A model generated the notes under the pieces. That model did not search any database and had not been told where the DNA came from. It saw only the letters and a list, made by a program, of their open reading frames with translations. Source: Synergistaceae bacterium (GTDB taxonomy: Bacteria > Synergistota > Synergistia > Synergistales > Aminobacteriaceae). Taken from it: DNA of 64,000 bases. This document shows positions 6,758-21,578 of this stretch, in pieces. The stretch spans positions 10,442-74,441 of the forward strand of contig JAFSJJ010000010.1 in NCBI GenBank assembly GCA_017439345.1, in the 5' to 3' direction. Position 1 is the first letter of the stretch. Each line of letters begins with the position of its first letter. The position numbers and the translations under genes are program-made.

Positions 6758-8650
6758 TTAACGGGAGCCTAAATGCTTTCTGAAAAATTCCTCAAGCTGC
6801 CTGTAAAAATCGAATCTGTTCTCCTCGTTAGAAAATCCGTGTCCTTCGTTATCTTTGACCAGATAGACGACATCTTTACCTGCTTTTCTTACTGCTTCGA
6901 CTATCTGATCTGACTCTGCTTTATTAACTCTAGGATCATTTGCACCCTGAGCTACGAACAACGGAATATTAATTTTATCAGCGTGAAATACCGGCGAGAC
7001 TTCTTCGAGTAATGCTTTGTCTTTGCTTGGATCTCCTATCATCTCATACTCCATCTCGAGAAAAGGCTTCCAGTAAGGGGGAATGCTCTCTAACAACGTG
7101 AAAATATTTGACGGACCGACATAGCTCACTGCACACGCATATAAATCAGGAGTGAAGACTGCTCCTGCGAGTGCTGCATAACCGCCGTAACTGCCTCCGT
7201 AGATTGCAAGTTTATTCTTGTCTGCTATGTCCTGAGATACTGCCCAGAGTACACCGTCCGTTATATCATCCTGCATTTTCCTGCCCCACTGCTTGAAACC
7301 TGCCTGCCAGAAATTTTTGCCGTAACCAGTTGAACCCCTGTAATTAACCTGCAAGACTGCTATGCCCCTATTTGCCAAGAACTGAGCTTCAGAGTCAAAG
7401 CCCCAGCCGTCTCTAGCACTTGGCCCCCCGTGAGGAATGACGACTAAAGGCAATTTAACCGGATTAATTCCAACAGGAAGAGTCAAATAGCCGTGAATTA
7501 ATAAGCCGTCCCGAGCATTAAAACTTATTGCTTTCATGGGAGCCATGTTCTCTTCTTTGAGCCATGGTGATAACTCAGCAAGTTTTGACATTGAATTATC
7601 TTTGCTGTCATATAGATAATATGTGCCTCTAGTTCTGTCGCTGTAAGTCCTGATTATGAATTTGCGTTCGTCGTCGTCCATATCTGCAATGCTGACTTCA
7701 TAATTTGGGAAAAATTCCTCAAGAGTTTTCTGCAATGCTTCTCTGTCAGCGTCAAAAAATTTGTAGTGCCTCTTGTCGGTCGTGTAAGTTACGCCTGTGA
7801 TAATTCTTTTTTTCTTAGAGTGAAGTATGCCTCCTGTGTCGACTTCAGGATGTTCAAATATTAAGTCAAGTAATTTGTTTTCGTCAGGATCGAATTTATA
7901 TATAGCAGTCTTGTCGTGGCTTAAATTGCTTGCAACGTACATGAATTTATTGTCATAGTCAAATAATACCGGAGCAAACTCTTCTTTAAAGTTAGTCGTG
8001 ATTAATTTCCTGAAAGGTTCTGACTCGTTAGCCCTGTATAAAAAACTTGTGTTGACTCCGTCAGTCTCCCAAGCACATCTTAATTTTCCGTTATGGTCAG
8101 TCATCCAGCCGGTGATATTTCCGGGATTCTCTGCTATTAAGACAAGCTCGCCTGTATTAATATCGCACCTGTAAATATCAAAGACTTCGGGATTATTTTT
8201 ATTCATGTCTATTAACATGTGATTAGGGTCATCTTCAAGATCGTCAAGAATGCCTGCTTTGACCTTCTCAAACGGAGTCAAGTCCCTGGCTTCAGAGCCT
8301 TTTATATCAGTGATATAGACGTGATAATTTTCATCGCCGCCCGAATCCTGAGCAAAAACTATTTTATCGCTGCCCTTCCAGAAAAAGCCTGCTATGTCGC
8401 GTTCAGTTGCTGAAGTTATGCGTTTCTCTATGCCTGTTGCAATTTCCCTGACATAAACATTCATTCTATGTTCCCAAGGCTTAAAGAAAGCTAATCTTGT
8501 CCCGTCCGGTGAGATTGAGAAGCCTGCGTTATCAGGATTCCTGAAAAAGTCTTCCATAGGCAATATGGGAGGCATGGCAGCAAGGGCTGAAGCTGCAGGT
8601 AAGAACATAAACATGAATAGTGCGATAAAAAATAATCTCGTCGTTATCAT
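6758..8650 (-). CDS. Secreted S9 family serine peptidase (prolyl oligopeptidase / dipeptidyl aminopeptidase type)
   Basis: Has a signal peptide, a beta-propeller-like N-terminal half, a C-terminal alpha/beta hydrolase with GGSYGGY, and a late GHGF His motif. Confidence 0.85.
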   Translation of the reverse strand: MITTRLFFIALFMFMFLPAASALAAMPPILPMEDFFRNPDNAGFSISPDGTRLAFFKPWEHRMNVYVREIATGIEKRITSATERDIAGFFWKGSDKIVFAQDSGGDENYHVYITDIKGSEARDLTPFEKVKAGILDDLEDDPNHMLIDMNKNNPEVFDIYRCDINTGELVLIAENPGNITGWMTDHNGKLRCAWETDGVNTSFLYRANESEPFRKLITTNFKEEFAPVLFDYDNKFMYVASNLSHDKTAIYKFDPDENKLLDLIFEHPEVDTGGILHSKKKRIITGVTYTTDKRHYKFFDADREALQKTLEEFFPNYEVSIADMDDDERKFIIRTYSDRTRGTYYLYDSKDNSMSKLAELSPWLKEENMAPMKAISFNARDGLLIHGYLTLPVGINPVKLPLVVIPHGGPSARDGWGFDSEAQFLANRGIAVLQVNYRGSTGYGKNFWQAGFKQWGRKMQDDITDGVLWAVSQDIADKNKLAIYGGSYGGYAALAGAVFTPDLYACAVSYVGPSNIFTLLESIPPYWKPFLEMEYEMIGDPSKDKALLEEVSPVFHADKINIPLFVAQGANDPRVNKAESDQIVEAVRKAGKDVVYLVKDNEGHGFSNEENRFDFYRQLEEFFRKHLGSR

Positions 8651-8765
8651 TGTGAACGAAGACTCCTTTCATTTATTTTATTTATATATTTATCTATCAG
8701 TGTGAATTTTGAATTATATCATGAGTAAATAAATATTAAAGTCTGCCATCGTCCAGCCTGCAAAG

Positions 8766-9701
8766 TTATTCAGTTATGCCCGTAGCTTGAGATGCAAGTT
8801 CCGGAGAAAAGCCCATTTCGAGCAGCTTTTGATAAATATTCCTGCTTGCCTCTGCTTTACCATCAAGCAAACCCTTAGCTATTCCTTCGCGTCTGCCTTC
8901 ACGCCTGCCTTTAGCTTCGCCTTTAGCTACCTGCCGTGAAAGAAAGTTATCCATTGTTACTTTGTCTCCTTTCTCGTAATCATAAAGAATTCTGTTTTGT
9001 GCATATTCAAAAGTTTTATCGCCTGTCAATGCCCTCATCAGCTTTAACAGGGAGTCAACGTGTTCAATCTCCCATTTTGAAGCCTTGTAGTTCTTAGTAA
9101 TTCTCTTCTGCCTGAAGTAATCTACGACGATCCTGAAATCACTCGTAAACTTCGCCGCTTGTTCGTCAGTGAGCCACGCAATTTCTATTATATTAAGTTT
9201 TGCATCGTTCACAAACGGCCTAAAGCTCTTGGGAATATCCAGACATTCAAAAAGTGTTCGGGGCTTCTTCCAGCATCTCATGCCGTAATATAACACGATT
9301 GTTACTACAGGATAAAATTTCGTGTTAAGAAGTCTTTTCACTTCCTCAGAGTCCTCTGCTTTCTTGGCTGCCTTTATATCATCATCGCGTCTGGTTATCT
9401 GTACCCGATAGTCTCCTCCCTCGTAACCTGCGACTCTGACCGGCATTGCTTTATCAATCGTGCTTTGGTTCTCAAGACCTAGAAGACAAAAAATTATTCC
9501 GCCCTTAGTCCATAATTTAACGGTGTCCCGTTCCTGCTCGTGTATCTCTCCTGATGACGAATAAACATTTCGAGTCCTGACATCCTGCAAGTCCTCAGGA
9601 GCTATTTTTTCATCAAGAGGCAGCAAACCGTTAATAATATCTGCAAAGACATCGTTATAATCTTCAAGTTTTTTCTCAAGTATATCTTTATCGTGAGTCA
9701 T
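8766..9701 (-). CDS. Rpn/YhgA-family recombination-promoting nuclease (putative transposase-like PD-(D/E)XK)
   Basis: 311 aa with an N-terminal DVFADIINGLL region and the family-typical C-terminal KGxxEG-type repeats (GEAKGRREGRREGIAKGLLDG). Confidence 0.7.
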   Translation of the reverse strand: MTHDKDILEKKLEDYNDVFADIINGLLPLDEKIAPEDLQDVRTRNVYSSSGEIHEQERDTVKLWTKGGIIFCLLGLENQSTIDKAMPVRVAGYEGGDYRVQITRRDDDIKAAKKAEDSEEVKRLLNTKFYPVVTIVLYYGMRCWKKPRTLFECLDIPKSFRPFVNDAKLNIIEIAWLTDEQAAKFTSDFRIVVDYFRQKRITKNYKASKWEIEHVDSLLKLMRALTGDKTFEYAQNRILYDYEKGDKVTMDNFLSRQVAKGEAKGRREGRREGIAKGLLDGKAEASRNIYQKLLEMGFSPELASQATGITE

Positions 9702-9766
9702 AATGTGATAAATTTAGCGTGATATTAAATTTTTTGCTATTCGTAATTTTATGGAGGACTCTTAAC

Positions 9767-10948
9767 GTGAACATTTACCCGTTGAATATATCATCACAGC
9801 AGGACATCAATAACATATGCGCAAAGATTCAGACGGACTCAAGGGCATTGGCTTACTTGTCGCCTAAATATAAAATTCTGCACTTCTACGCTGAGAACAT
9901 AGACTACAGGGCAGCGGCTTTTCTCAAGCAGGAATTATTATCACGCGGCGGAGACACTATAGTTACTAAGCACGTAATAGACGGCAAAAGCTCATCAAGC
10001 AATATATTACTCATGGGAACAAGCTCGCAGATTAAGAGCCTGATTCAAAAATTATCTTCAATGGACTGCTGGGGACTGAAAGATTTACGCGAGAGTCTTT
10101 CACGTTCATTCACGAATATAAATATTAACAAATGGCACATCAACAGCAAAATAACTCTCGACAACGATAACACTAAATTAATGGCAATTATAAATCTTAC
10201 TCCGGACTCATTCTACGAGGGCAGCAGAGTCAACGAGTCTCAAATAATCAACACTGCACAGAAATTCTTGAACGAGGGCGCATATATTCTTGACATCGGG
10301 GCAGAGTCGACGCGTCCCGGAGCAGCTCAGGTTGACTCAGAAGAGGAAATTTCGCGGTTAATCCCTGCACTGAAAATTTTACGGCGTGAGTTTGGTGATA
10401 AATTAATAATTTCAGTCGACACTTACAAAGCACTCACAGCACGGTCAGCAATTGACTCAGGAGCAGACATAATTAACGACATAAGCGGCTTCTCACTTGA
10501 TAGGGACATGCTAACTACAATCGCAAAGTTAAACGTCCCGTATATACTCTCTCACATTGAAGGCACTCCATCTAACATGAAAGAATTTGAAGGCCATGAA
10601 GATATTATTAATACCCTGCAAGTTTACTTCACTGATAAAATAAACGCTCTCGAACAGGCAGGACTCAGACGTGAGAATATTATTCTTGATCCGGGCTTAG
10701 GCTTTGCTAAGTCAGAACACGACAACTTCATGATAATAAAGCATATCGAATCGCTAAAAGTTTTCGGGCTGCCAATCATGACAGGACACTCAAGAAAGAG
10801 ATTCACAGGTGATAAAAACGAAATTGCAGGGACTCTTGCCGTGAGTTCATTATTGGCTGGACGGGTGAGTCTCCTGCGTGTTCATGATGTCAGAGAAAAT
10901 TTGCTTGCTGTCTCAGTGAGTCAAAGTATTCATGAATCACAGTTTTGA
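9767..10948 (+). CDS. folP: Dihydropteroate synthase with an uncharacterised ~135-aa N-terminal extension
   Basis: From ORF 9719..10948; the likely start is GTG 9767 with GGAGGA 8 nt upstream. The pterin-binding domain begins near LMAIINLTPDSFYEGSR, followed by DIGAESTRPGA, DTYK, INDISG and GHSRK. Confidence 0.9.
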   Translation: MNIYPLNISSQQDINNICAKIQTDSRALAYLSPKYKILHFYAENIDYRAAAFLKQELLSRGGDTIVTKHVIDGKSSSSNILLMGTSSQIKSLIQKLSSMDCWGLKDLRESLSRSFTNININKWHINSKITLDNDNTKLMAIINLTPDSFYEGSRVNESQIINTAQKFLNEGAYILDIGAESTRPGAAQVDSEEEISRLIPALKILRREFGDKLIISVDTYKALTARSAIDSGADIINDISGFSLDRDMLTTIAKLNVPYILSHIEGTPSNMKEFEGHEDIINTLQVYFTDKINALEQAGLRRENIILDPGLGFAKSEHDNFMIIKHIESLKVFGLPIMTGHSRKRFTGDKNEIAGTLAVSSLLAGRVSLLRVHDVRENLLAVSVSQSIHESQF

Positions 10949-10952
10949 TTTA

Positions 10953-12091
10953 TTAATGTGAGAACTTGTGCCTAATCCAGAACCAAGTATATTTAATCAA
11001 GTTAAGAACTGGTATTTTATTTATGACCCGATACTTAAATGATGCAAAGATTCTCTGAAGCAAAGGCTTGTTTAAACGTTCGGTTAATAAATCTATATTA
11101 GCTGTCGTCTTATCTGCAAGAATGTCTATTAATTCACTGTGAGTTATATCTCTTCCCCATTCAGCTGCGAGAAATGTATTCCAGTATAATTTTTCGTGTG
11201 CTGCTCCTGTGAAGACTTTCCACGGCTTGGGGACTGCGTACATATGCATTATGCAATGTGATAAATCTAGGTCTTTATTAAGAAGGTCATAGACATTGAA
11301 TCTGGGATCAATAAATTTTTTATCGCTTTCGAAAACAGAATTAATTGCATCCTGGTCCGGGAAGAGCGGCATATGACGATAATACATAAGCCATTCAAGG
11401 ATAATTTTGCTGAAATCTCCTCTTTCGCGAATTTTTTTGAGATTCATAACAGTTACTCCGGAATTAATATATTGTGTTCTGTTGCAGCCTAAAAATTCTA
11501 CATGCAGTGATAATTCTGATAAAAATTTCTGGCTGTGAACCCTGTCTAATACGCCGGCAATGCTTTTATTCTCAAGATCGATGCTCCAGAGTTCGTTAAT
11601 ATCAAGATTTACGATTATGTCGCAGTCAATATAGATTATTTTGTCAAGTGCAGGCAAAGCTTCAGGGATAAACATTCTGTAAAGAGCTCCGACCGTCCAT
11701 TGTCCTGAAATATGCTTTATTGATTCGCTGATTCTTTTTTCATGCTCTGTTATGTCGATAAACTCTAAAGTCTGTGAAAAATTTTCTGCTGTCTTGATTA
11801 ATTTATTGCGGTTGTCCTGTGTTAAAGTCTCATCATGCAGAATATGAATTGTAACAGGATTATGAGTGTGCTGAAAAATTGAAGTGATTACTACGCCTGC
11901 ATTCTGTGAATAATTTCCTGAAGGGTCATAGAGTGCTAATGCTACGTGTATGCGTTCAAGTGTTTCATTAGGCTTTAAGGCACAATAACAGCGTTGGGCG
12001 TTGGGCGTTGGGCGTTGGGCGTTGGGCGTTGGGCGTTGGGCGTTGGGCGTTGGGCGTTGGGCGTTGGGCGAATTGTAAAGTTATTTTGCAT
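10953..12091 (-). pseudogene. GT8-family glycosyltransferase with no usable in-frame start (phase-OFF or frameshifted)
   Basis: The listed ORF 10953..11675 (DCDIIV, GT8 C-terminal half) continues open upstream to 12080, encoding ...NETLERIHVALALYDPSGNYSQNAGVVITS (the GT8 N-terminus). That stretch has no ATG/GTG/TTG. The upstream ATGs at 12091 and 11968 are both in the wrong frame. Confidence 0.7.
11991..12070. repeat. Perfect heptanucleotide tandem repeat, (GCGTTGG)x11 plus GCG
   Basis: Read directly from the sequence: 80 nt with an exact 7-nt period. The ORF-track entry 11994..12197 (GVGRWAL repeats) is its translation. Confidence 0.97.
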
Positions 12092-12100
12092 TCCTGTCAA
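12072..12100 (-). promoter_or_regulatory. Sigma70-type promoter, TTGACA-17 nt-TACAAT, facing the GT8 gene
   Basis: On the minus strand the -35 TTGACA is at 12100..12095 and the -10 TACAAT is at 12077..12072, with a 17-nt spacer. The same architecture is conserved in the paralogous copy at 17198..17226. Confidence 0.5.
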
Positions 12101-12158
12101 GCTCCCTGTTAATAATTTGCGTTTTTGTAATTACAACATAAAGCATTCATGCACTATT

Positions 12159-12269
12159 ATAAAAACGAAATTGCAGGGACTCTTGCTGGACGTGTGAGTC
12201 TCCTGCGTGTTCATGATGTCAAAGCTAATATGATTGCCGTCTCAGTGAGTAAAAGTATTCATGAATCAC
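12159..12269 (+). pseudogene. Relic duplicate of the folP 3' end (last ~37 codons, in-frame 18-nt deletion)
   Basis: Aligns with 10812..10940 with about 8 substitutions and one 18-nt gap. It translates as KNEIAGTLAGRVSLLRVHDVKANMIAVSVSKSIHESLF*, compared with KNEIAGTLAVSSLLAGRVSLLRVHDVRENLLAVSVSQSIHESQF* for folP. Confidence 0.85.
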
Positions 12270-12614
12270 TTTTCTAATTGACTCGCATTCTGACTCGGTC
12301 AATCTTGAGTCATTATTCTCGTCAAACATTTTATTGATTCCGCCTATGATTTCTTCAGCGAGTGAAGCAACTAAATCACTATCACCGGACATGCTTAATA
12401 TTTTTATGCCGTAATCGAAATCGCGTTTCAGGTTATCGAATTTTTCAGGGGTCGCAACAACTCTGCATTCATTCAGGGAGGATTCACGGACTCCGGGCTT
12501 CATGAGTTCCCATTTAAATTTTGCCTGAGGGTCAAAGCGGTTTGCAAGCTCCATTAATTCTTTGGCTCCTGATGAGATTTTCTTCTTGAACGTGTTAATT
12601 ATGTTCGCTGCCAT
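12225..12614 (-). CDS. Hypothetical small soluble protein (129 aa), last gene of the GTPase operon
   Basis: The ORF overlaps the upstream gene by 20 nt. I recognise no motif. Its final 15 codons are antisense to the folP-tail relic. Confidence 0.6.
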   Translation of the reverse strand: MAANIINTFKKKISSGAKELMELANRFDPQAKFKWELMKPGVRESSLNECRVVATPEKFDNLKRDFDYGIKILSMSGDSDLVASLAEEIIGGINKMFDENNDSRLTESECESIRKVIHEYFYSLRRQSY

Positions 12615-13449
12615 GTGATAAAGTTTTGTCTATTGACGGCGATACTACATCGTATTTTAAGACGCTGGAGTCTCTCGATGAAAAATGACGTTCCGGAAGT
12701 GCTTTCTTAATATCTTCTGTGAGTCCGTTGATAACTTCTCGGCGGTTGACCTCTTGAGCCTTCTGAATCTCTTGAGCCTTATCCCTGCCTCCAAAGACAT
12801 AACAGCCCGCGATAAAAACTCCTACAAGTACTGCAACACCTACTGTAACTGCTGCAATCTTCTTTACTTTACCTGAAGAGTTATCTTTATCATCATCAGC
12901 AAATGACTCTGTTTCTGTTATGTCAAAGACCCTGCCAATATTAATATATTGCTCCTCACCGTTACGCTTCGTCCACTTCAGAACTTTGCCTTTATGAAGC
13001 CAGCCGTTGTCCTCGAAATCTCCGCCGTCAGACTGAAGCCAGCTCATGAAAGCAGACTCGTCAAGTTTAACGCCTTCTGCTTCAGTGCCTTCGTTAATGT
13101 CTTGAAGATTATTACTCAGCCAATTTTCAACGTCCTCCCAGTGATCGCTAATCTTAATGAACGCTGAAGCTGCTTTGCTAATCTCTTCAATCGGGAAAAT
13201 TTCACAGAACGAGAATCTTATTGCTCGTCCCCTCTCGTCTCGTTTATGGCGGTCAAGACCTGAAGCTACGAGATAAATTTTTGCATTCTCAATGAACGAA
13301 CATACGCACTCTTCGCCTTCAAGAATGCTGCATTTCTGACGCAGGGGCCTGAAACCTTCATAATTGCTGACAGTACCTGAGCCTCCGTTGATAAAGACCC
13401 TGTAATCTACAAATCTTGTGCGCGTTACGAATCTGAAATTATCACTCAT
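12595..13449 (-). CDS. Hypothetical single-pass membrane protein (284 aa)
   Basis: Has GGGGGTG 8 nt upstream of the ATG. It has a ~195-aa N-terminal domain, one TM helix (IAAVTVGVAVLVGVFIAGCYVF) and a ~65-aa charged C-terminal tail. Confidence 0.7.
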   Translation of the reverse strand: MSDNFRFVTRTRFVDYRVFINGGSGTVSNYEGFRPLRQKCSILEGEECVCSFIENAKIYLVASGLDRHKRDERGRAIRFSFCEIFPIEEISKAASAFIKISDHWEDVENWLSNNLQDINEGTEAEGVKLDESAFMSWLQSDGGDFEDNGWLHKGKVLKWTKRNGEEQYINIGRVFDITETESFADDDKDNSSGKVKKIAAVTVGVAVLVGVFIAGCYVFGGRDKAQEIQKAQEVNRREVINGLTEDIKKALPERHFSSRDSSVLKYDVVSPSIDKTLSHGSEHN

Positions 13450-13453
13450 AGTT

Positions 13454-14437
13454 TTACACCCCCATTAATTCTTTTCCGCAGATTATTTCATTTCTGCTGC
13501 TTCCGGAAGATATTCCGCTGCGGACATATTTTGCGATGTCAGGCATGTTGTCAGGCGAGAAAAATTCCCAGTCCCAAACGCAAACAAAGTGAAACATTTT
13601 GCGCCATATACTTTTGCTGCGTTTCTGCTGCTTCCTGAACTGCTCGAATAAGAAGCTCATTGCGAATCTCAAAGGCTGGTCGGTGTATTCGGGACTAAAA
13701 GTTTTGCCGTTGACTTTCATGAAAACCTGCTCTACTGCTCTGCCGCCTGCTGTCTTTAAATAGCTGAATTTGACATTGCCCATCGTGTTAATCGGGACTA
13801 TTGCAATTGCCAGCTTGCCTTTATAAGTTTCCTGTCCCATTTTGATTGTGTCATGAAAAGCATTCTTGACTGCCTGCTTCAATGCCTGCTGAGAGCTCCA
13901 GCTTTCCATATACTTTTCGCACTTAATCGGCACGAGCAGAATTAATCTCTCCTGCTTGTCTGATTCTCCGATTACTTCTTTTATCATGAGTTCGACATCT
14001 CTAATAGCTGCCTGCTCTGCATATTTCCCGCCTTGTTCCATTAAGTAGGGTGTATCGACTGCGACTATAAACACCAAAGACTGCTTCATTAACTTGATGA
14101 CTTGATTATAGTCTTGATCTGCTGCACTGCGAGCTATCCATCTTCCGGGGAAATCAAAGAATCTCACGGGCATAATGTTTTTATTACCCTTAATCTTGAA
14201 ATCGAAGGAAGTCATGTCTTCAGTATTCTTGACTTCACTGATATTCAATGTGCTAGGGTTTGCTGATTCCTTGAGTCTCTGATAAGCGTCCTCAAGAATG
14301 CCAAATGTCCTTCTGTCAGGGTAAAACGTTCCGGGTATCATGCTCTCAAGCTCTCTGTTCATGCAGGCAAGCATTGAAGTTTTGCCCGAACCCGAAGGCC
14401 CAAGCATTGTGAATATTAACGGTTTTGTCTCTGCCAT
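13454..14437 (-). CDS. P-loop GTPase-like protein (327 aa, TRAFAC-type motifs)
   Basis: Walker A/G1 is MLGPSGSGKTSML and G3/Walker B is RFFDFPGRW. There is no canonical NKxD; LVPIKCEKY is a possible G4 variant. Confidence 0.8.
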   Translation of the reverse strand: MAETKPLIFTMLGPSGSGKTSMLACMNRELESMIPGTFYPDRRTFGILEDAYQRLKESANPSTLNISEVKNTEDMTSFDFKIKGNKNIMPVRFFDFPGRWIARSAADQDYNQVIKLMKQSLVFIVAVDTPYLMEQGGKYAEQAAIRDVELMIKEVIGESDKQERLILLVPIKCEKYMESWSSQQALKQAVKNAFHDTIKMGQETYKGKLAIAIVPINTMGNVKFSYLKTAGGRAVEQVFMKVNGKTFSPEYTDQPLRFAMSFLFEQFRKQQKRSKSIWRKMFHFVCVWDWEFFSPDNMPDIAKYVRSGISSGSSRNEIICGKELMGV

Positions 14438-14479
14438 AACGTTAACTCCTTTGTTAGTAGAATCTTTTCGCTGAGATAA

Positions 14480-14647
14480 TTACTTGCTTTGTTTAAGTAT
14501 CCAAGCAATGACAAAAGCTGTTACTGCTGAAGCTAGTGCTGAGGCCAAGAGCCACATCACTTTTTCTAAATTGCCTAAACTATTTTCCGCAAGCAAAACA
14601 AACCAAGAAGTCCCGCATAGAAGAAAAATAATACACACACAATCCAT
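14480..14647 (-). CDS. Possible small hydrophobic protein (55 aa); an alternative 25-aa ORF runs from ATG 14652
   Basis: Below the ORF-track cutoff. Hand translation gives MDCVCIIFLLCGTSWFVLLAENSLGNLEKVMWLLASALASAVTAFVIAWILKQSK. It fills the only gap in the operon. GGGGG lies 10-15 nt upstream of the two ATGs. Confidence 0.3.
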   Translation of the reverse strand: MDCVCIIFLLCGTSWFVLLAENSLGNLEKVMWLLASALASAVTAFVIAWILKQSK

Positions 14648-14659
14648 TTCATATTGTAT

Positions 14660-16933
14660 TTACCCCCTGAACATAAAATTAGATGAACTCAATAACGCAG
14701 CAATCTCACTCAACGGAGCGCGTAAAGCTGCACATAATTCATTTCGTCTTTGTGAAGCCCCGTACTCTTCAGGCCACACTTTCCCCCTGATTGACCGGTA
14801 AAATCTCCGCCACTGATTTTGAAGACTCTTGCCTTCAAGTTGATTTGATCTGATGACTATATCTTTGAATTCTTCGGCCGCTGCAAAAGCTGCCTTGTTA
14901 GGTTCCGAGTATATATCTGCAAATGTCCTGTAAATCTCGTTAATCGTTTCGTAATAAAGAGCCTCAAGCAGTGTTATTGTCTCGCCGATGTCTGACAAGG
15001 GAACAACGTATTCTTGTGACGCTTTGTCTAACGGGTCAAGCCTGTTGAGCGAACTTCTGAGCCTGTGCTGAATAAAGCTCCTGTAATTCATTGAGTAGCC
15101 GAATAACAGGTTAAAGCCTTCAATGAGGGCGGGGACATCGTCTTTGAATTCTGATTTATCAAGGAAATTTATAATCTCGTTGAGCAGTCTGTAATCTCTG
15201 ACTCCGAAAGCCTTTTCAAGTCTGCCGGTATCTGCAAGAATCTCGCATATTTTATTCTTCATGTCGAGCAGCACAGCATTTAATGTAACGTCTAAATTTT
15301 CCTGAAGCTGTGAACTTAATTCCGTCCTGAGCAGGTGCATTGCATTTTCACGGGCCGTCTGAAGTCCTCCTGCCATGTTTGAAGTTTCCTTGATGTAGCT
15401 AGTGTAGTTTGCAGCCAAATCAAATTCTTCTGCCGACTTTAGAATCTCCATGATCTTTTCTTTAAATGGTATGCAGTCATCATCGCGCTTGACTCTTAAT
15501 TCTGAACCTTCGCCGACAACTTCTTGAAGCTTCATCCGCAGTTTGTTCCATAAGTCGTCCCAGAGGTCGTCAAATTTTCCGCTGTCCCTCTCTGAGTTAG
15601 AGTCATCACGCAAGAGCCACATAGCTTTATCCGTAATATCTTTGATGTCTGATAACAGCTTGTTCAAGAGTTCCTGAAGATTTTTCGCGTACTCTAAATC
15701 ATTGCGTTCAATATTGGCTGCGAGAAACTCTAATGCCTTATCAATTAATTTCTGTGAGACTTCATCAGGATTAGTGCAGTCTACGATAACAGAGTCAGAC
15801 ACTTTGATTTGAGCACTTGACATGTACTTTTGCATTAACTCGCACTGAGGCATATTCTCCGCTCCAGGTCTTGAGTCGTGGTTGAATACCCAGAATGACC
15901 AGCGTTCTATAGGAAGTTTTTCACCGAGCGCACGTTTTGCCTGACTATATAAATGAATCTCGTTATCCTGCCAGGCTGCTCCGGTATTTGAGGGCTTTGA
16001 CAGAAAGAAGACTAAATCAACCTGATCGCTCAATGCAGATACGACTCTTTTAACGTCTCCGATTCGAGTGTCTCCGAGTCCCGGCAGGTCTATTAATCTC
16101 AATGCGTTTACGTCAGTGTTAGGGAACTTGCAGAAAATTTCTACCCGGTCAACTGCTGCGTGTTTGAAAAATACTCTTTCACCCTTTGCGTTATCTTGAG
16201 CTACGTATTCGCGTATTTGTTCCCGTGATATTCTTAGCGGCGGCTTGTCTAAGTACTCCTGATACTGGCTCAAGTGGTCTTGTAAGTCCTTCAGGTGTTC
16301 TAAGTGCAGATTCATTTGAGTTATATATTCAGGGCTTGCCTTCAACGTTCCAGGCTCAGGGATATTTTGAGTCTTGAACTCTGCAACGCTTGACGGAGGG
16401 AATAAATCAATTTTATGCTGCTGAAGGTCTGCAAAGTAAGGCTCGATGTTCTCAGATATAAAGCGTCTCTCAGTCAGAAAATTTACTACTGCATAGGCTT
16501 CACTTGCTGAAGGGTCGTTAATTATATCGCTTCGGACTCCTGTGCAGAATGCCAAATTTCCGTCCGGTATCTCCTGAGCACTTAGTCCCGTTATCGTCTG
16601 TAAGAGTCTGCTCTTGCCCTGTCTAGCTCTGCCGATTACTGCGATGTTAAGGGTTCTGCGTGAGAGTCTTGCTGCTATGTTGTGCAAGTCCGCCGTTAAC
16701 CAGCTGCCTTCGTTGATTATGTGTTCCGATGAGTTCACTGTCTTGAAGAGTTCCGCAAGGTTTCCTGATTCTGAGTCTGACTCTGAGTCTATGTCCCTGT
16801 TATATTTCCTGCATAAGTTCGAGAATTCCTCAAACTTTGAGAGTACCCGCGATAATTTCTCTCTTGACTGGGTAATCTTCTCTGCAAGAGGCGCGCGCTG
16901 ATTGATAATGCTCTCGATGAAGTCCTGTCTCAT
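14660..16933 (-). CDS. Dynamin-family large GTPase (bacterial dynamin-like protein, 757 aa)
   Basis: G1 is IAVIGRARQGKSRLLQTITG and G3 is LRLIDLPGLGDT. It has a long helical C-terminal half (~400 aa) and an N-terminal acidic/Ser stretch, DIDSESDSESG. Confidence 0.85.
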   Translation of the reverse strand: MRQDFIESIINQRAPLAEKITQSREKLSRVLSKFEEFSNLCRKYNRDIDSESDSESGNLAELFKTVNSSEHIINEGSWLTADLHNIAARLSRRTLNIAVIGRARQGKSRLLQTITGLSAQEIPDGNLAFCTGVRSDIINDPSASEAYAVVNFLTERRFISENIEPYFADLQQHKIDLFPPSSVAEFKTQNIPEPGTLKASPEYITQMNLHLEHLKDLQDHLSQYQEYLDKPPLRISREQIREYVAQDNAKGERVFFKHAAVDRVEIFCKFPNTDVNALRLIDLPGLGDTRIGDVKRVVSALSDQVDLVFFLSKPSNTGAAWQDNEIHLYSQAKRALGEKLPIERWSFWVFNHDSRPGAENMPQCELMQKYMSSAQIKVSDSVIVDCTNPDEVSQKLIDKALEFLAANIERNDLEYAKNLQELLNKLLSDIKDITDKAMWLLRDDSNSERDSGKFDDLWDDLWNKLRMKLQEVVGEGSELRVKRDDDCIPFKEKIMEILKSAEEFDLAANYTSYIKETSNMAGGLQTARENAMHLLRTELSSQLQENLDVTLNAVLLDMKNKICEILADTGRLEKAFGVRDYRLLNEIINFLDKSEFKDDVPALIEGFNLLFGYSMNYRSFIQHRLRSSLNRLDPLDKASQEYVVPLSDIGETITLLEALYYETINEIYRTFADIYSEPNKAAFAAAEEFKDIVIRSNQLEGKSLQNQWRRFYRSIRGKVWPEEYGASQRRNELCAALRAPLSEIAALLSSSNFMFRG

Positions 16934-17166
16934 GATAAATAAATCAATCCTTTCATGTTATGTGTGTGATGAGTGAATTAATGATCTCGAAATGTTCACA
17001 GCGAATCAAATGCATCTGGGTTAATGCATAAAATCAAATGTGAGCAGCCTTGTATTTCGTGAATGTAAATGTAAATTTGAATCGTGAAGAGCGTGTTAAT
17101 ATAAATACTGGTGTGAAAAATTTATTTTTATTTCGTTGAGTGTGATTTAATTCGTTTGAGTTCTCA

Positions 17167-17246
17167 GGCGTTAAGGCACAATAATAGCGTTGAGCAAAAT
17201 GTAAAATTATTCTGCATCCTTGTCAAGTTCTCCTTCATTAATGATT
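17167..17246. repeat. Direct repeat copy B of the promoter/leader element (single degenerate heptamer unit)
   Basis: GGCGTTAAGGCACAATAATAGCGTTGAGCAAAATGTAAAATTATTCTGCATCCTTGTCAAGTTCTCCTTCATTAATGATT aligns with copy A at 11971..12118. Confidence 0.8.
17198..17226 (-). promoter_or_regulatory. Sigma70-type promoter, TTGACA-17 nt-TACATT, facing the dynamin-like operon
   Basis: On the minus strand the -35 is at 17226..17221 and the -10 is at 17203..17198. This implies a leader of about 255 nt before ATG 16933. Confidence 0.5.
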
Positions 17247-17401
17247 AATAAATAATTTTCATTCAGTTTATTGAGTGATTATAACAAAAAATTTTTCTGC
17301 GTGAATGTTTTTATTTTTTCGTGAACGTTTATTAAAGCCCCTGTAAATTTGCTCTTACTTCTGAAATAATTATTATAGGATTTAATATTTAATCTGGAGG
17401 T

Positions 17402-18721: not shown

Positions 18722-18956
18722 CGCTTTTATTATCATCATTATCATCATTGACTCAAGCCTCTGTGATTTTGATTTTCATGCTTTAATGAATTTCTTAATT
18801 CAGGAGGCATTTTTTATTTGCCTGTTAATGCGAAAGTTTTATTGAGTAGCTCTAACATAAAGTATTCATGCTAAAATTATTCATTCATATAATCATATAA
18901 TTAATAATTAAGTAGTACGCTACAAAAAATTTTGAGAGGAGAACAAATTCTTTCTT

Positions 18957-21578
18957 ATGTCAGACGAAAATTTAAACCAGCCTATTCAGCAAGAAATCAC
19001 AAACCCTGACGAGGCAGGAAGAATAATATCACTTCCACTAGTTGGAGAAATAAAGACAAGTTATCTTAATTACGCTATGAGTGTCATTGTCGGCAGAGCT
19101 TTACCTGATGCAAGAGACGGACTCAAACCTGTTCAGCGAAGAGTACTCTATGCAATGTCAGAACTTGGCCTGAAACATAACACAGCGTACAAGAAATCAG
19201 CTCGTATAGTCGGTGAAACTATGGGTAAGTATCACCCTCACGGAGACAGCGCAATCTATGACACCATGGTACGACTTGCTCAGAATTGGAACTTGAGATA
19301 CTGCCTTGTTGACGGTCAAGGAAATTTCGGCTCAGTCGACGGAGACAGCGCGGCGGCCATGCGTTACACTGAAGCGAGACTCAGCTGGCCGGGTGAAATA
19401 ATGTTAGCTAATCTCGACGAAGACACTGTTGACTGGGGACAAAACTTTGACGAGTCTCTCAAGGAACCTTTAACTCTGCCGTCTATACTGCCAAATCTTT
19501 TAGTCAACGGCTCAACGGGTATAGCTGTCGGAATGGCTACGAACATGCCCCCTCATAACTTGAATGAAGTTGCAGAAGTGTTATGCTGGCTCATTGAGAA
19601 TAATATAGAACCTGAAGACGCAGACTTACGCGAAATCATGAAGATTATGCCGGGCCCGGACTTCCCTACAGGAGGCGAAATCTTGGGACGTGCAGGAATT
19701 CACGAGGCTTACTCAACAGGACGAGGCAAGATAACTATTCGAGGCAAAATGCACGCTGAACAGTCAAAGCGGGGCAAGAACAGAATAATCATTACTGAGA
19801 TTCCGTTTAACGTGAATAAAACTATGCTGCTTGAAGCTATGGTCAGTGCTGTACAGGATAAGCAGATCGAAGGCATTACTGAAATCCGGGACGAGTCAGA
19901 CCGTGACGGCTTAAGAATAGTAGTCGAAATTGCAAGGGATATTGACTCGGACTTGATAATCAGACAGCTTTACAAACATACTCAGCTTCAGGCAACTTAC
20001 GGAGTTATTAATCTCGCTCTAGTTAATCAGCACCCCGAAATTTTGCCGATTAAAAATTTACTCAGCATTTATCTTAACTACAGGCGCGATGTTGTCAGAC
20101 GCAGAACTGAATTCAGGCTCAGGCAGGCTCAGGCAAGAGAGCATATCATCGAAGGCTTGAAGAAGGCTCTTGAGAATATCGAACAGGTAATAAAGATTAT
20201 TCGAGGCACTAATTCCGCAGGTGAAGCAAAAGAGAGCTTGCAGACTCAATTAGAGTTCTCGGACGTTCAGGCACAGGCAATACTTGATATGAGGCTCCAG
20301 AGACTCACAGGACTTGAACGCAATAGACTTGATGACGAACAAACTAAATTGCTTGGTGATATAGAGTCATATAATCACATTCTCAGCGACAAGAAGACTC
20401 TTGATAACGTTATTCGCGATGAACTCAGAGAGATTGCTTCACGCTTCGGAGACAAGAGACGAACTGAAATTATCGATAATTATGAAGAAGTCTCAGATGA
20501 AGACATGATTCAAGAGTCAGATATAGTGATTACCCTTTCACAAGATGGCTTCATTAAGCGTCAGCCGGTCGAGTTCTACAAGTTACAGGCCAAAGGAGGC
20601 AAGGGACGCAAGGGAGCTAACATTCAAGATGATGACAGCATTTCTCTTGTCAGCGTAACTCATACTCACAAGCATATTTACTTCTTTACGAATATGGGAC
20701 GAGTCATGACGGTCAAAGGCTACGAAATTCCAGAGACTAAATCAGGCAAAGGGAAACCCGTTAATAAAACTCTGCCGCTTTATGAGAATGAACGAATTGT
20801 CAATATCGCAAGTGATGACGACACAGGAAGCAAGTATTTATTCTTTATTACCAGATTGGGAATTGCGAAAAGAGTCAGCCTTGACGAAATGAAAGCCAGC
20901 AATAGACCTCGAAAAGCTATGAATATCGATGAAGGAGACGAGATCGCTCAAGTCAGACTCACTAACGGAGAAAATAATTTGCTTATCGTAACAGCTAAAG
21001 GCCAAGCCCTCAGGGTATCAGAACAGGAATTCAGGCAGATGGGCAGGACTGCACGAGGCGTTAAGGCTATAAATCTCAAGAACGGCGATAAAGTTTTGAG
21101 CTGCGATGTTGTCGATGATTCACGGACTATCTTATTAATCAGCGAACACGGTATAGGCAAACGCACAGATTTTGAAGCGTTCACTCCTCATCATAGAGCT
21201 ACGGCAGGAATCAAGATAATGAATCTCAATCACAGGACAGGAAAGCTCGCAGGCTGTTTATCAGTCAAAGATAATGACGAAATGTTAATAATCACGTCAA
21301 AAGGCATGATGATTAGACTTGAAACTAACAGCGTATCGAAATTATCACGAGTTGCAACAGGAACGATTATATTGCGTCTTAACGAAGGCGACACCGTTGC
21401 AGATTGCAGCCTCATCAAAGCACCTGAAGAGAGCAATGAACCTAAGTCAGAAAATTTGATTATGTTCAATGCCCCTGAAGACTTCAACGAGCAAGAGACT
21501 ATCACATTCAATGACTATGATTATGATAGTGATAACCAGGAGGACTCTGACAATGACAACGAAGATGAAAATAGCTAG
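18957..21578 (+). CDS. gyrA: DNA gyrase subunit A with an acidic C-terminal tail
   Basis: Has the [28 protein letters not shown] and HPHGD motifs and the active-site region [10 protein letters not shown]. The C-terminal beta-pinwheel is followed by [22 protein letters not shown]. Confidence 0.97.

Follow-up and report, generated by a model that had tools for sequence, protein, structure and literature searches.

In a stretch of 64,000 nucleotides (nt) from a Synergistaceae bacterium (GenBank assembly GCA_017439345.1, contig JAFSJJ010000010.1, positions 10,442 to 74,441 of the forward strand), referred to here as the window and numbered from its own first letter, the 3′ end of folP is present twice: once as the end of the intact dihydropteroate synthase gene, and once without the 5′ part, on the far side of a convergent gene for a GT8-family glycosyltransferase. 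The question raised by this locus is how the end of a housekeeping gene came to be displaced in this way, and whether the DNA between the copies is an inserted island, as the original prediction from the sequence had supposed. We find that the duplication is a genuine recombination scar at which two normally alternative cassettes, one carrying the GT8 gene and the other a block of GTPase genes, were joined in series. The explanation that we favor, and consider likely, is that the interval between folP and gyrA is a hotspot of cassette exchange, in which GT8-type and block-type units were stacked by an illegitimate join that was followed by homologous exchange of the alleles.

Doubled elements between folP and gyrA

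The elements concerned, in window coordinates, are these:

9767-10948, plus strand: folP, encoding a dihydropteroate synthase of 393 amino acids (aa), with a GTG start at 9767 (Pfam PF00809, E 6.7e-66; identical contigs are also called at 393 aa)
10693-10909, no strand: recombination tract inside folP, with 24 mismatches to the conspecific contig L076 (~89% identity), the first at 10693
10812-10948, plus strand: folP tail copy 1, the live end, closing with ...RENLLAVSVSQSIHESQF and the stop (repeat search and alignment); a tail type tied to GT8
10953-11990, minus strand: body of the GT8 glycosyltransferase gene, convergent with folP, an open frame with a DxD motif (Pfam PF01501, E 3.3e-37, cutoff 24.3)
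11991-12070, minus strand: heptamer tract, (GCGTTGG)x11.4 as written on the plus strand; on the gene strand the unit is CCAACGC, and the tract is read as (PTPNAQR)n (TRF)
12072-12138, minus strand: GT8 leader, with the ATG at 12091-12089, the ribosome-binding site (RBS) at 12106-12102 and, upstream, the extended -10 TGTTGTAAT at 12138-12130; a layout conserved in 7/7 GT8 loci examined
12105-12158, plus strand: P1 (...AACATAAAGCATTCATGCACTATT), in which the gyrA promoter region recurs in truncated and degraded form with its -10 destroyed, recognized by comparison with 18821-18880
12158-12159, no strand: novel joint, at which the gyrA promoter remnant is fused to folP codon ~349 of the 393-aa protein (ATAAAAACG...), common to the contig L081
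12159-12277, plus strand: folP tail copy 2, the orphan; its proximal 66 nt contain an 18-nt deletion and have no known coding role, and the opposite strand of its distal 53 nt encodes the C-terminus of a small gene
12225-16933, minus strand: GTPase block of four genes (open reading frames [ORFs] and profile searches)
17165-17295, minus strand: GT8 5′-region remnant at the gyrA-proximal end of the block, with the first GT8 codons, the leader, the extended -10 and a degraded promoter copy, P′
18821-18880, plus strand: P2, the live gyrA promoter region, with its core CATGCTAAAAT at 18867-18877 and the gyrA start at 18957 (sequence and genus comparison)

Global alignment and blastn of 10812-10940 against 12159-12269 gave 129 columns with 103 matches, 8 mismatches and one in-frame gap of 18 nt (E about 1e-30), in agreement with the count of about 8 substitutions and one in-frame 18-nt deletion that had been reached by hand in the original prediction. 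A repeat search of the window returned a block identical at 28/28 positions (10812-10839 and 12159-12186) and a second block of 87% identity (10856-10950 and 12185-12279), and these two are the only copies of the folP tail in the 2.54-Mb genome. The folP frame does continue through copy 2, as had been claimed, and is closed by a stop at the corresponding position: the copy translates to ...KNEIAGTLAGRVSLLRVHDVKANMIAVSVSKSIHESLF and terminates at the TAA at 12275-12277. The 18-nt deletion was seen only in copy 2 of the window strain.

The tail is one of three elements that are doubled in the window, the others being the gyrA promoter region and the GT8 5′ leader. P1 matches 18821-18880 at 41/60 positions (E 1e-4), with a local score that was matched by 2 of 1000 shuffles, and it is positionally homologous to the CATGCTAAAAT core found upstream of gyrA across the genus. 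At the other end of the block, the segment 17165-17246 aligns with the GT8 5′ region with a Smith-Waterman score of 83, against 17.7 +/- 2.6 for shuffles, and the remnant of which it is part holds one degenerate heptamer (17186-17195) and a TTGACA-N17-TACATT promoter (17226-17198, minus strand) that now precedes the GTPase block. The corresponding spacer between block and gyrA in L079, a contig from a close lineage, gave a Smith-Waterman score of 90 over ~150 nt, with similarity continuing into the promoter. Because these GT8 5′ remnants remain at the gyrA-proximal end, the block allele is best read as a GT8 allele in which the GT8 body has been replaced. The window is then divided into a first unit, consisting of tail 1, GT8, the heptamer tract, the leader and P1, and a second unit, consisting of tail 2, the GTPase block, the GT8 remnant, the leader remnant and P′. 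Two units in tandem should have every unit-bounding element present twice, and since three boundary elements each occur twice here, we read the window as two alternative folP-gyrA alleles placed head to tail.

The part of copy 2 that has been kept is explained by the small gene with which it overlaps, the 129-aa last gene of the block (12225-12614, minus strand), whose 3′ end lies in the distal 53 nt of copy 2. In block-type alleles this gene (~120-130 aa) converges on folP and overlaps its last ~55 nt, and the C-terminus of its product, RKVIHEYFxSLRxQ, is among the most conserved parts of the protein and is encoded antisense to the folP tail. The gene is represented by only five protein clusters in a collection of 5.8 billion proteins, and in every recovered contig that reaches its 3′ end, this end sits in a folP tail, either live or orphaned. 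Around the block copies found at other loci in ten other species, neither the small gene nor tail-like DNA was detected. The distal part of copy 2 persists, we conclude, because its opposite strand encodes the conserved C-terminus of the small gene, whereas the proximal 66 nt would be free to decay. It also follows from the constant position of the small gene that any DNA entering between folP and the block has to leave the overlap in two copies for folP and the small gene both to remain intact.

Alleles in conspecific strains and across the genus

The comparison set consisted of 20 related species for which the downstream flank of folP was fetched, species of the genus sharing just 50-65% folP identity, together with close-lineage contigs from a large protein collection. 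A scan of JGI metagenomes by way of folP found no relative. Two contigs from the same species and from two samples, L076 and L077, show 3 differences from the window in the 2,413 nt of 8280-10692 (99.9% identical), up to the start of the recombination tract at 10693. Both of them lack GT8 and have a single tail, the small gene and the GTPase block following folP immediately, and their block is just 81% identical to that of the window. Their working folP ends in ...RANMIAVSVSQSIHESLF and the stop, and it has the ANMI and ESLF states and the post-stop sequence in common with copy 2, so that two tail types can be told apart: ENLL...ESQF, which occurs with GT8, and ANMI...ESLF, which occurs with the GTPase block (L076 and copy 2). 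These data support the identification of copy 2 as the displaced 3′ end of a block-linked and once-functional folP allele, and the earlier suggestions that this terminus had once been functional and that the two tails come from diverged sources are both borne out. The comparison further supports the assignment of the last ~250 nt of folP, copy 1 included, to an exchanged haplotype, although either conspecific haplotype could be the derived one. A clear breakpoint within folP was found only against the conspecific L076 and was lacking against L054, L053, L056 and L057.

Copy 2 itself is a mosaic that resembles copy 1 in its proximal part and L076 in its distal part, with 97% identity in each case. 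More exactly, the distal 61 nt (the 53-nt overlap and 8 nt past the stop) match the functional tail of L076 at 97%, whereas the proximal part matches that tail at 91% and carries the deletion in addition.

The same arrangement of folP leading into the block is found in L054 (folP ~90% identical at the nucleotide and 92% at the amino acid level) and in L082 (~89% at the nucleotide level). Orphan folP tails were recovered in three further contigs, L079, L080 and L081. L081 has the same joint between P1 and the tail, and its GT8 leader and P1 differ from those of the window at 1/108 positions, but its tail keeps the 18 nt and is followed by a different block allele, ~83% identical to the window block. 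L079 and L080 carry the L081-type block allele and the same tail start, with a fuller promoter copy before the tail; to their left lie unrelated genes, and the lysC-like ORF of the window is absent. No tRNA was found adjoining the orphan tail in L079. Since L081 combines the same joint with an undeleted tail and a different block allele, the joint predates the window strain, and it has since been reshuffled by homologous recombination.

Across the genus the order is folP, an optional convergent GT8, and then gyrA-psd-pssA. The latter three genes lie within ~6 kb of folP in 12 of the 20 species, and a convergent GT8 with the same heptamer tract directly follows folP in 8 of the 20, six of these being among the 12; the remaining species have other genes there. 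In alleles that lack GT8, the gyrA promoter core CATGCTAAAAT comes immediately after the folP stop or overlaps with it. As GT8 and the same tract stand after folP in 8/20 species, GT8 has long been resident at the locus. The proposal that GT8 had arrived together with a replacement folP tail is thus upheld in one respect, in that copy 1 and the last ~250 nt of folP lie in an exchanged haplotype and L076 and L077 are without GT8, but a recent gain of GT8 in this genome is not supported, in view of its wide occurrence at this place, the presence of the joint in another lineage and the derivation of the block allele from a GT8 allele. A duplicated tail of its own folP was found in none of the 20 related species.

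Formation of the composite allele

In the explanation we favor, the interval from folP to gyrA would exist in the genus in three kinds of allele: an empty one, with the folP stop abutting the gyrA promoter; a GT8 type; and a GTPase-block type, confined to this species cluster. The block type would have been derived from a GT8-type allele by replacement of the GT8 body, retaining the first GT8 codons, one or two heptamers, the leader and the gyrA promoter. The joint at 12158/12159 would have formed once, by an illegitimate, non-homologous join, and the likeliest occasion for it may have been the import of one allele into a genome that carried the other, with a single homologous anchor in folP or in gyrA, that is, homology-facilitated illegitimate recombination. 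Since then, homologous recombination with folP as its anchor has moved composite and simple alleles between strains and between lineages.

Several points weigh against this explanation. Most of the comparison contigs are short, and the right-hand crossover of the strain-level exchange is not seen in them. Microhomology at the joint amounts to only ~2 nt, and on the promoter side L079 departs from the window and L081, so that the original joint sequence is uncertain and later deletions must be assumed. The mosaic structure of copy 2 requires an additional step of gene conversion or crossover. Three orders of events are possible, namely entry of a GT8 unit into a block-type genome, entry of a block unit into a GT8-type genome, or duplication first. 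Finally, a weakly matching gene for an Rpn/YhgA-like nuclease adjoins folP and could take part.

The last of the three orders amounts to an explanation in its own right, which we regard as rather unlikely while giving it some weight. Here the segment comprising the folP tail, GT8, the leader and the gyrA promoter would have been tandemly duplicated in a GT8-type genome, which creates the joint between promoter and tail; the block would then have replaced the GT8 body in the second copy, and the simple alleles of L076, L054 and L082 would stem from later tail-by-tail deletion of the first unit. A single tandem event would cover all three doubled elements and the one novel joint, insertion of the block into a spare copy of GT8 would be free of cost, and the proximal part of copy 2 is close to copy 1, as noted above. 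The functional tails of L054 and L076 are moreover mosaics of copy-1-like and copy-2-like states, as deletion from tail to tail predicts, but this mosaicism is compatible with the favored explanation as well. The two units are, however, diverged from each other: the tails are ~93% identical over 111 aligned positions (8 mismatches) and only 77% identical in the distal 61 nt, the leaders ~81% and the promoters ~68%. In all block alleles the small gene and the folP tail overlap, which on this view requires that the fit between block and tail came about within the duplicate, and a genome with two GT8 units was not found among the relatives searched. A different and more elaborate idea holds that the folP tail and the gyrA promoter region serve as dedicated portable homology arms, with the 12-mer AAAG[C/T]ATTCATG in common, for stacking and swapping units, with help from the Rpn/YhgA-like nuclease, and that the small gene C-terminus was overprinted on the antisense strand of the end of an essential gene, tying the block to its piece of folP; we think this quite improbable.

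Site-specific integration of a GT8 island into the 3′ end of folP, with a replacement tail brought in and the original one displaced, is the reading that had been proposed earlier, and we now consider it very unlikely. As in integrative islands at gene ends or tRNAs (with attL and attR), direct repeats of the gene end flank the insert, here including a 28-nt stretch without mismatch, the exchanged segment takes in copy 1, and a conspecific strain exists with a single tail and without GT8, as an empty site would have, although this strain carries another block allele. Unlike such islands, the borders share no common core, the right border being a gyrA promoter remnant joined to the tail and not an att site, and the gene inside is an old resident, GT8 occurring with the same tract and leader at this locus in 8/20 species. 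No integrase or recombinase lies in 10949-12158, where GT8 is the only ORF with a recognizable domain; the earlier statement that no integrase or transposase is present thus holds between the tail copies, but a weak Rpn/YhgA-like gene (Transposase_31) stands just upstream of folP. The left crossover (10693) falls within folP, ~120 nt before the start of the repeat, which indicates homologous and not site-specific exchange, and the conspecific strain differs across the whole block as well (81% identity), which indicates an allele swap and not an insertion. Site-specific island integration was therefore rejected on the lack of a recombinase, the promoter-remnant border, the upstream start of the exchange and the ancestral presence of GT8. 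Still less credible, to the point of being negligible, is an assembly artefact in which the alleles of two co-occurring strains were stitched together through their shared tail. The assembly is of the metagenome type and comprises 46 contigs, and window-type and L079-type contigs do occur in one sample, ERZ27256812. The window arrangement was nevertheless assembled independently in three further samples, with 0 mismatches apart from the length of the heptamer tract, which makes four samples with the identical arrangement, and the joint recurs in the diverged lineage of L081 with a different downstream allele; for these reasons the duplication is not an artefact. The partners at the joint share only ~2 nt, so an assembler cannot have made it.

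The displacement resembles that described for Rhs/CDI loci and for the effector-immunity arrays of the Vibrio cholerae type VI secretion system (T6SS), in which an incoming module shifts the 3′ end already in place, with the genes tied to it, to a downstream position where they stay as orphans (PMC5361080 and references there). The proposal made there is that the rare founding step is homology-facilitated illegitimate recombination, the common step being ordinary homologous recombination (PMC5361080). As in those systems, the conserved 5′ part of a gene acts as the homologous anchor, alternative 3′ ends are tied to alternative downstream modules, and the displaced end is kept downstream without its 5′ part and together with its linked module, here copy 2 and the block. 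The anchor in the window is the housekeeping gene folP and not a toxin gene, and toxin-immunity pairs are replaced as modules by an apparently phase-variable glycosyltransferase and by a GTPase block, so the likeness is one of process and not of family. In addition, the orphan is kept here as the antisense coding end of another gene, and a second boundary element, the gyrA promoter, is also duplicated. Combination of a one-sided homologous anchor with an illegitimate join has been described by de Vries & Wackernagel 2002, Prudhomme et al. 2002 and Meier & Wackernagel 2003 (as cited in PMC5361080) and also in PMC3240628. In keeping with it, one end of the exchange lies in strong homology, the identity within folP falling at 10693 from 99.9% to ~89%. 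The joint at 12158/12159 has almost no homology in its present form, but its original sequence is uncertain; in contrast to the cases studied, the founding event is read here from its scars only.

The duplication itself is an ordinary kind of event that happens to be unusually well documented, and no new mechanism is indicated. Its interest lies in providing a strain-resolved case, in a poorly studied phylum and with all boundary elements accounted for, of accessory cassettes that are swapped and occasionally stacked beside essential genes. It also demonstrates that what looks like a pseudogene fragment can be retained as the coding end of a gene on the opposite strand, a situation that annotation pipelines would miss.

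Cassette genes, short repeats and neighboring genes

The GT8 product contains the DxD motif as IDCDII at residue ~115, which together with the profile match places it in the GT8 family, and it has a weak match to LPS (lipopolysaccharide) 3-alpha-galactosyltransferase. Its 339-aa frame is open but has no start codon above 11675. The ATG linked to the RBS (12091) is followed by 7 codons and then by a perfect (CCAACGC)x11, and the frame that it opens stops just past the tract. The window has 11 units whereas three contigs from three samples have 8, with 0 other differences over 3.5-8.7 kb; both numbers leave the gene out of frame (OFF), and 6, 9 or 12 units would place it in frame. Seven GT8 loci from as many species have the same layout of extended -10, RBS, start codon, 6-9 codons, (CCAACGC)n with 4-13 units and GT8, four of them being in frame (ON) and three out of frame. 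In 6 of the 7, (PTPNAQR)n is read in one shared frame from the conserved RBS-linked start, and the remaining locus, which has the variant unit CCAACGA (G015), reads the equivalent QRPTTND. The heptamer-encoded peptide is in frame in the metagenome homologs P0122, P0124 and P0132, and an internal-Met gene call in 6 of the 34 retrieved metagenome homologs would fit an out-of-frame 5′ end. GT8 is thus probably phase-variable through a slipped-strand ON/OFF switch, and probably OFF in the window assembly, as judged from the sequence.

Intragenic simple sequence repeats are known to control phase-variable LPS glycosyltransferases at contingency loci, for example in Haemophilus influenzae, and heptanucleotide tracts have been reviewed (PMC2651432). 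The tract described here is like these in being perfect, in having a unit that is not a multiple of three, in lying in the 5′ coding region of a GT8-family gene with an intact downstream frame, in differing in unit number between otherwise identical sequences and in occurring in ON and OFF states among relatives. Unlike the Haemophilus-type loci, it is found in Synergistaceae, reportedly of gut or rumen origin, and its unit, CCAACGC, is conserved across a deep genus. It differs from known contingency loci also in having a near-consensus promoter directly 5′ of the tract, overlapping the RBS and start codon, and in being a switch predicted from sequence. A heptamer-controlled and apparently phase-variable surface glycosyltransferase throughout a genus of Synergistaceae would extend contingency loci to this group.

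The promoter just mentioned is of the sigma-70 type, TTGACA-N17-TACAAT (11/12 matches), at 12100-12072 on the minus strand. It is kept in all GT8 alleles though the leader peptide differs. With regard to provenance, the GC content is 36% in GT8, 41% in the window and 43% in the block, a difference too weak for a foreign origin of GT8 to be assigned, and the closest other GT8 is only 51% identical, so that no donor can be named.

The remaining members of the GTPase block, and the ORF that lies between it and gyrA, are as follows:

12595-13449, minus strand: gene for a protein of 284 aa
13454-14437, minus strand: DO-GTPase2, 327 aa
14660-16933, minus strand: dynamin-like protein, 757 aa
17402-18721, plus strand: lysC-like aspartate kinase ORF, named from a reading of the sequence, between P′ and P2 and absent from this place in L079

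The combination of dynamin-like protein and DO-GTPase2 was found in 19 other genomes, all of this genus, and in none from the other 19 genera of the family; in these genomes it often includes two DO-GTPase2 paralogs and stands at other loci. A comparison of the block with known defence systems (PADLOC) gave nothing significant. The block may be a genus-restricted conflict system. The segment 17296-18880, with the lysC-like ORF, looks like a third unit inserted in the promoter region with partial duplication of the promoter.

Two short repeats were noted in and around the tails. A perfect palindrome, ATTCATGAAT, lies at 10929-10938 and at 12258-12267; its two strands specify the same tripeptide, Ile-His-Glu, one in folP and the other in the small gene. 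The 12-mer AAAG[C/T]ATTCATG has four sites in the 64 kb (10923, 12140, 12252 and 18859), all in direct orientation, and these coincide with the end of each folP tail copy and with each copy of the gyrA promoter. In the other species examined, no such 12-mer is common to the folP end and the gyrA promoter, and a general att-like core is therefore unsupported; the 12-mer may have been left over from an ancestral allele whose folP end ran into the gyrA promoter.

On the upstream side, the pterin-binding domain of the folP product is preceded by ~150 N-terminal aa (9767-10230), an extension that is conserved across the genus; the Pfam match spans residues 155-378 of the 409-aa folP ORF. Divergent from folP is a gene for a protein of 311 aa (8766-9701, minus strand), which is barely over the cutoff for Pfam Transposase_31 (YhgA-like) and under the NCBIfam cutoff for the Rpn family, and much of which (approximately 8822-9426) has no counterpart in L082. 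In L053 and L055 (82-85% folP identity) the synteny with the window stops at the folP stop codon (compared with window position 10946), which is followed by cold-shock and thiamine genes in one and by polysaccharide genes in the other. The 3′ end of folP is on this account a general rearrangement boundary in the clade.

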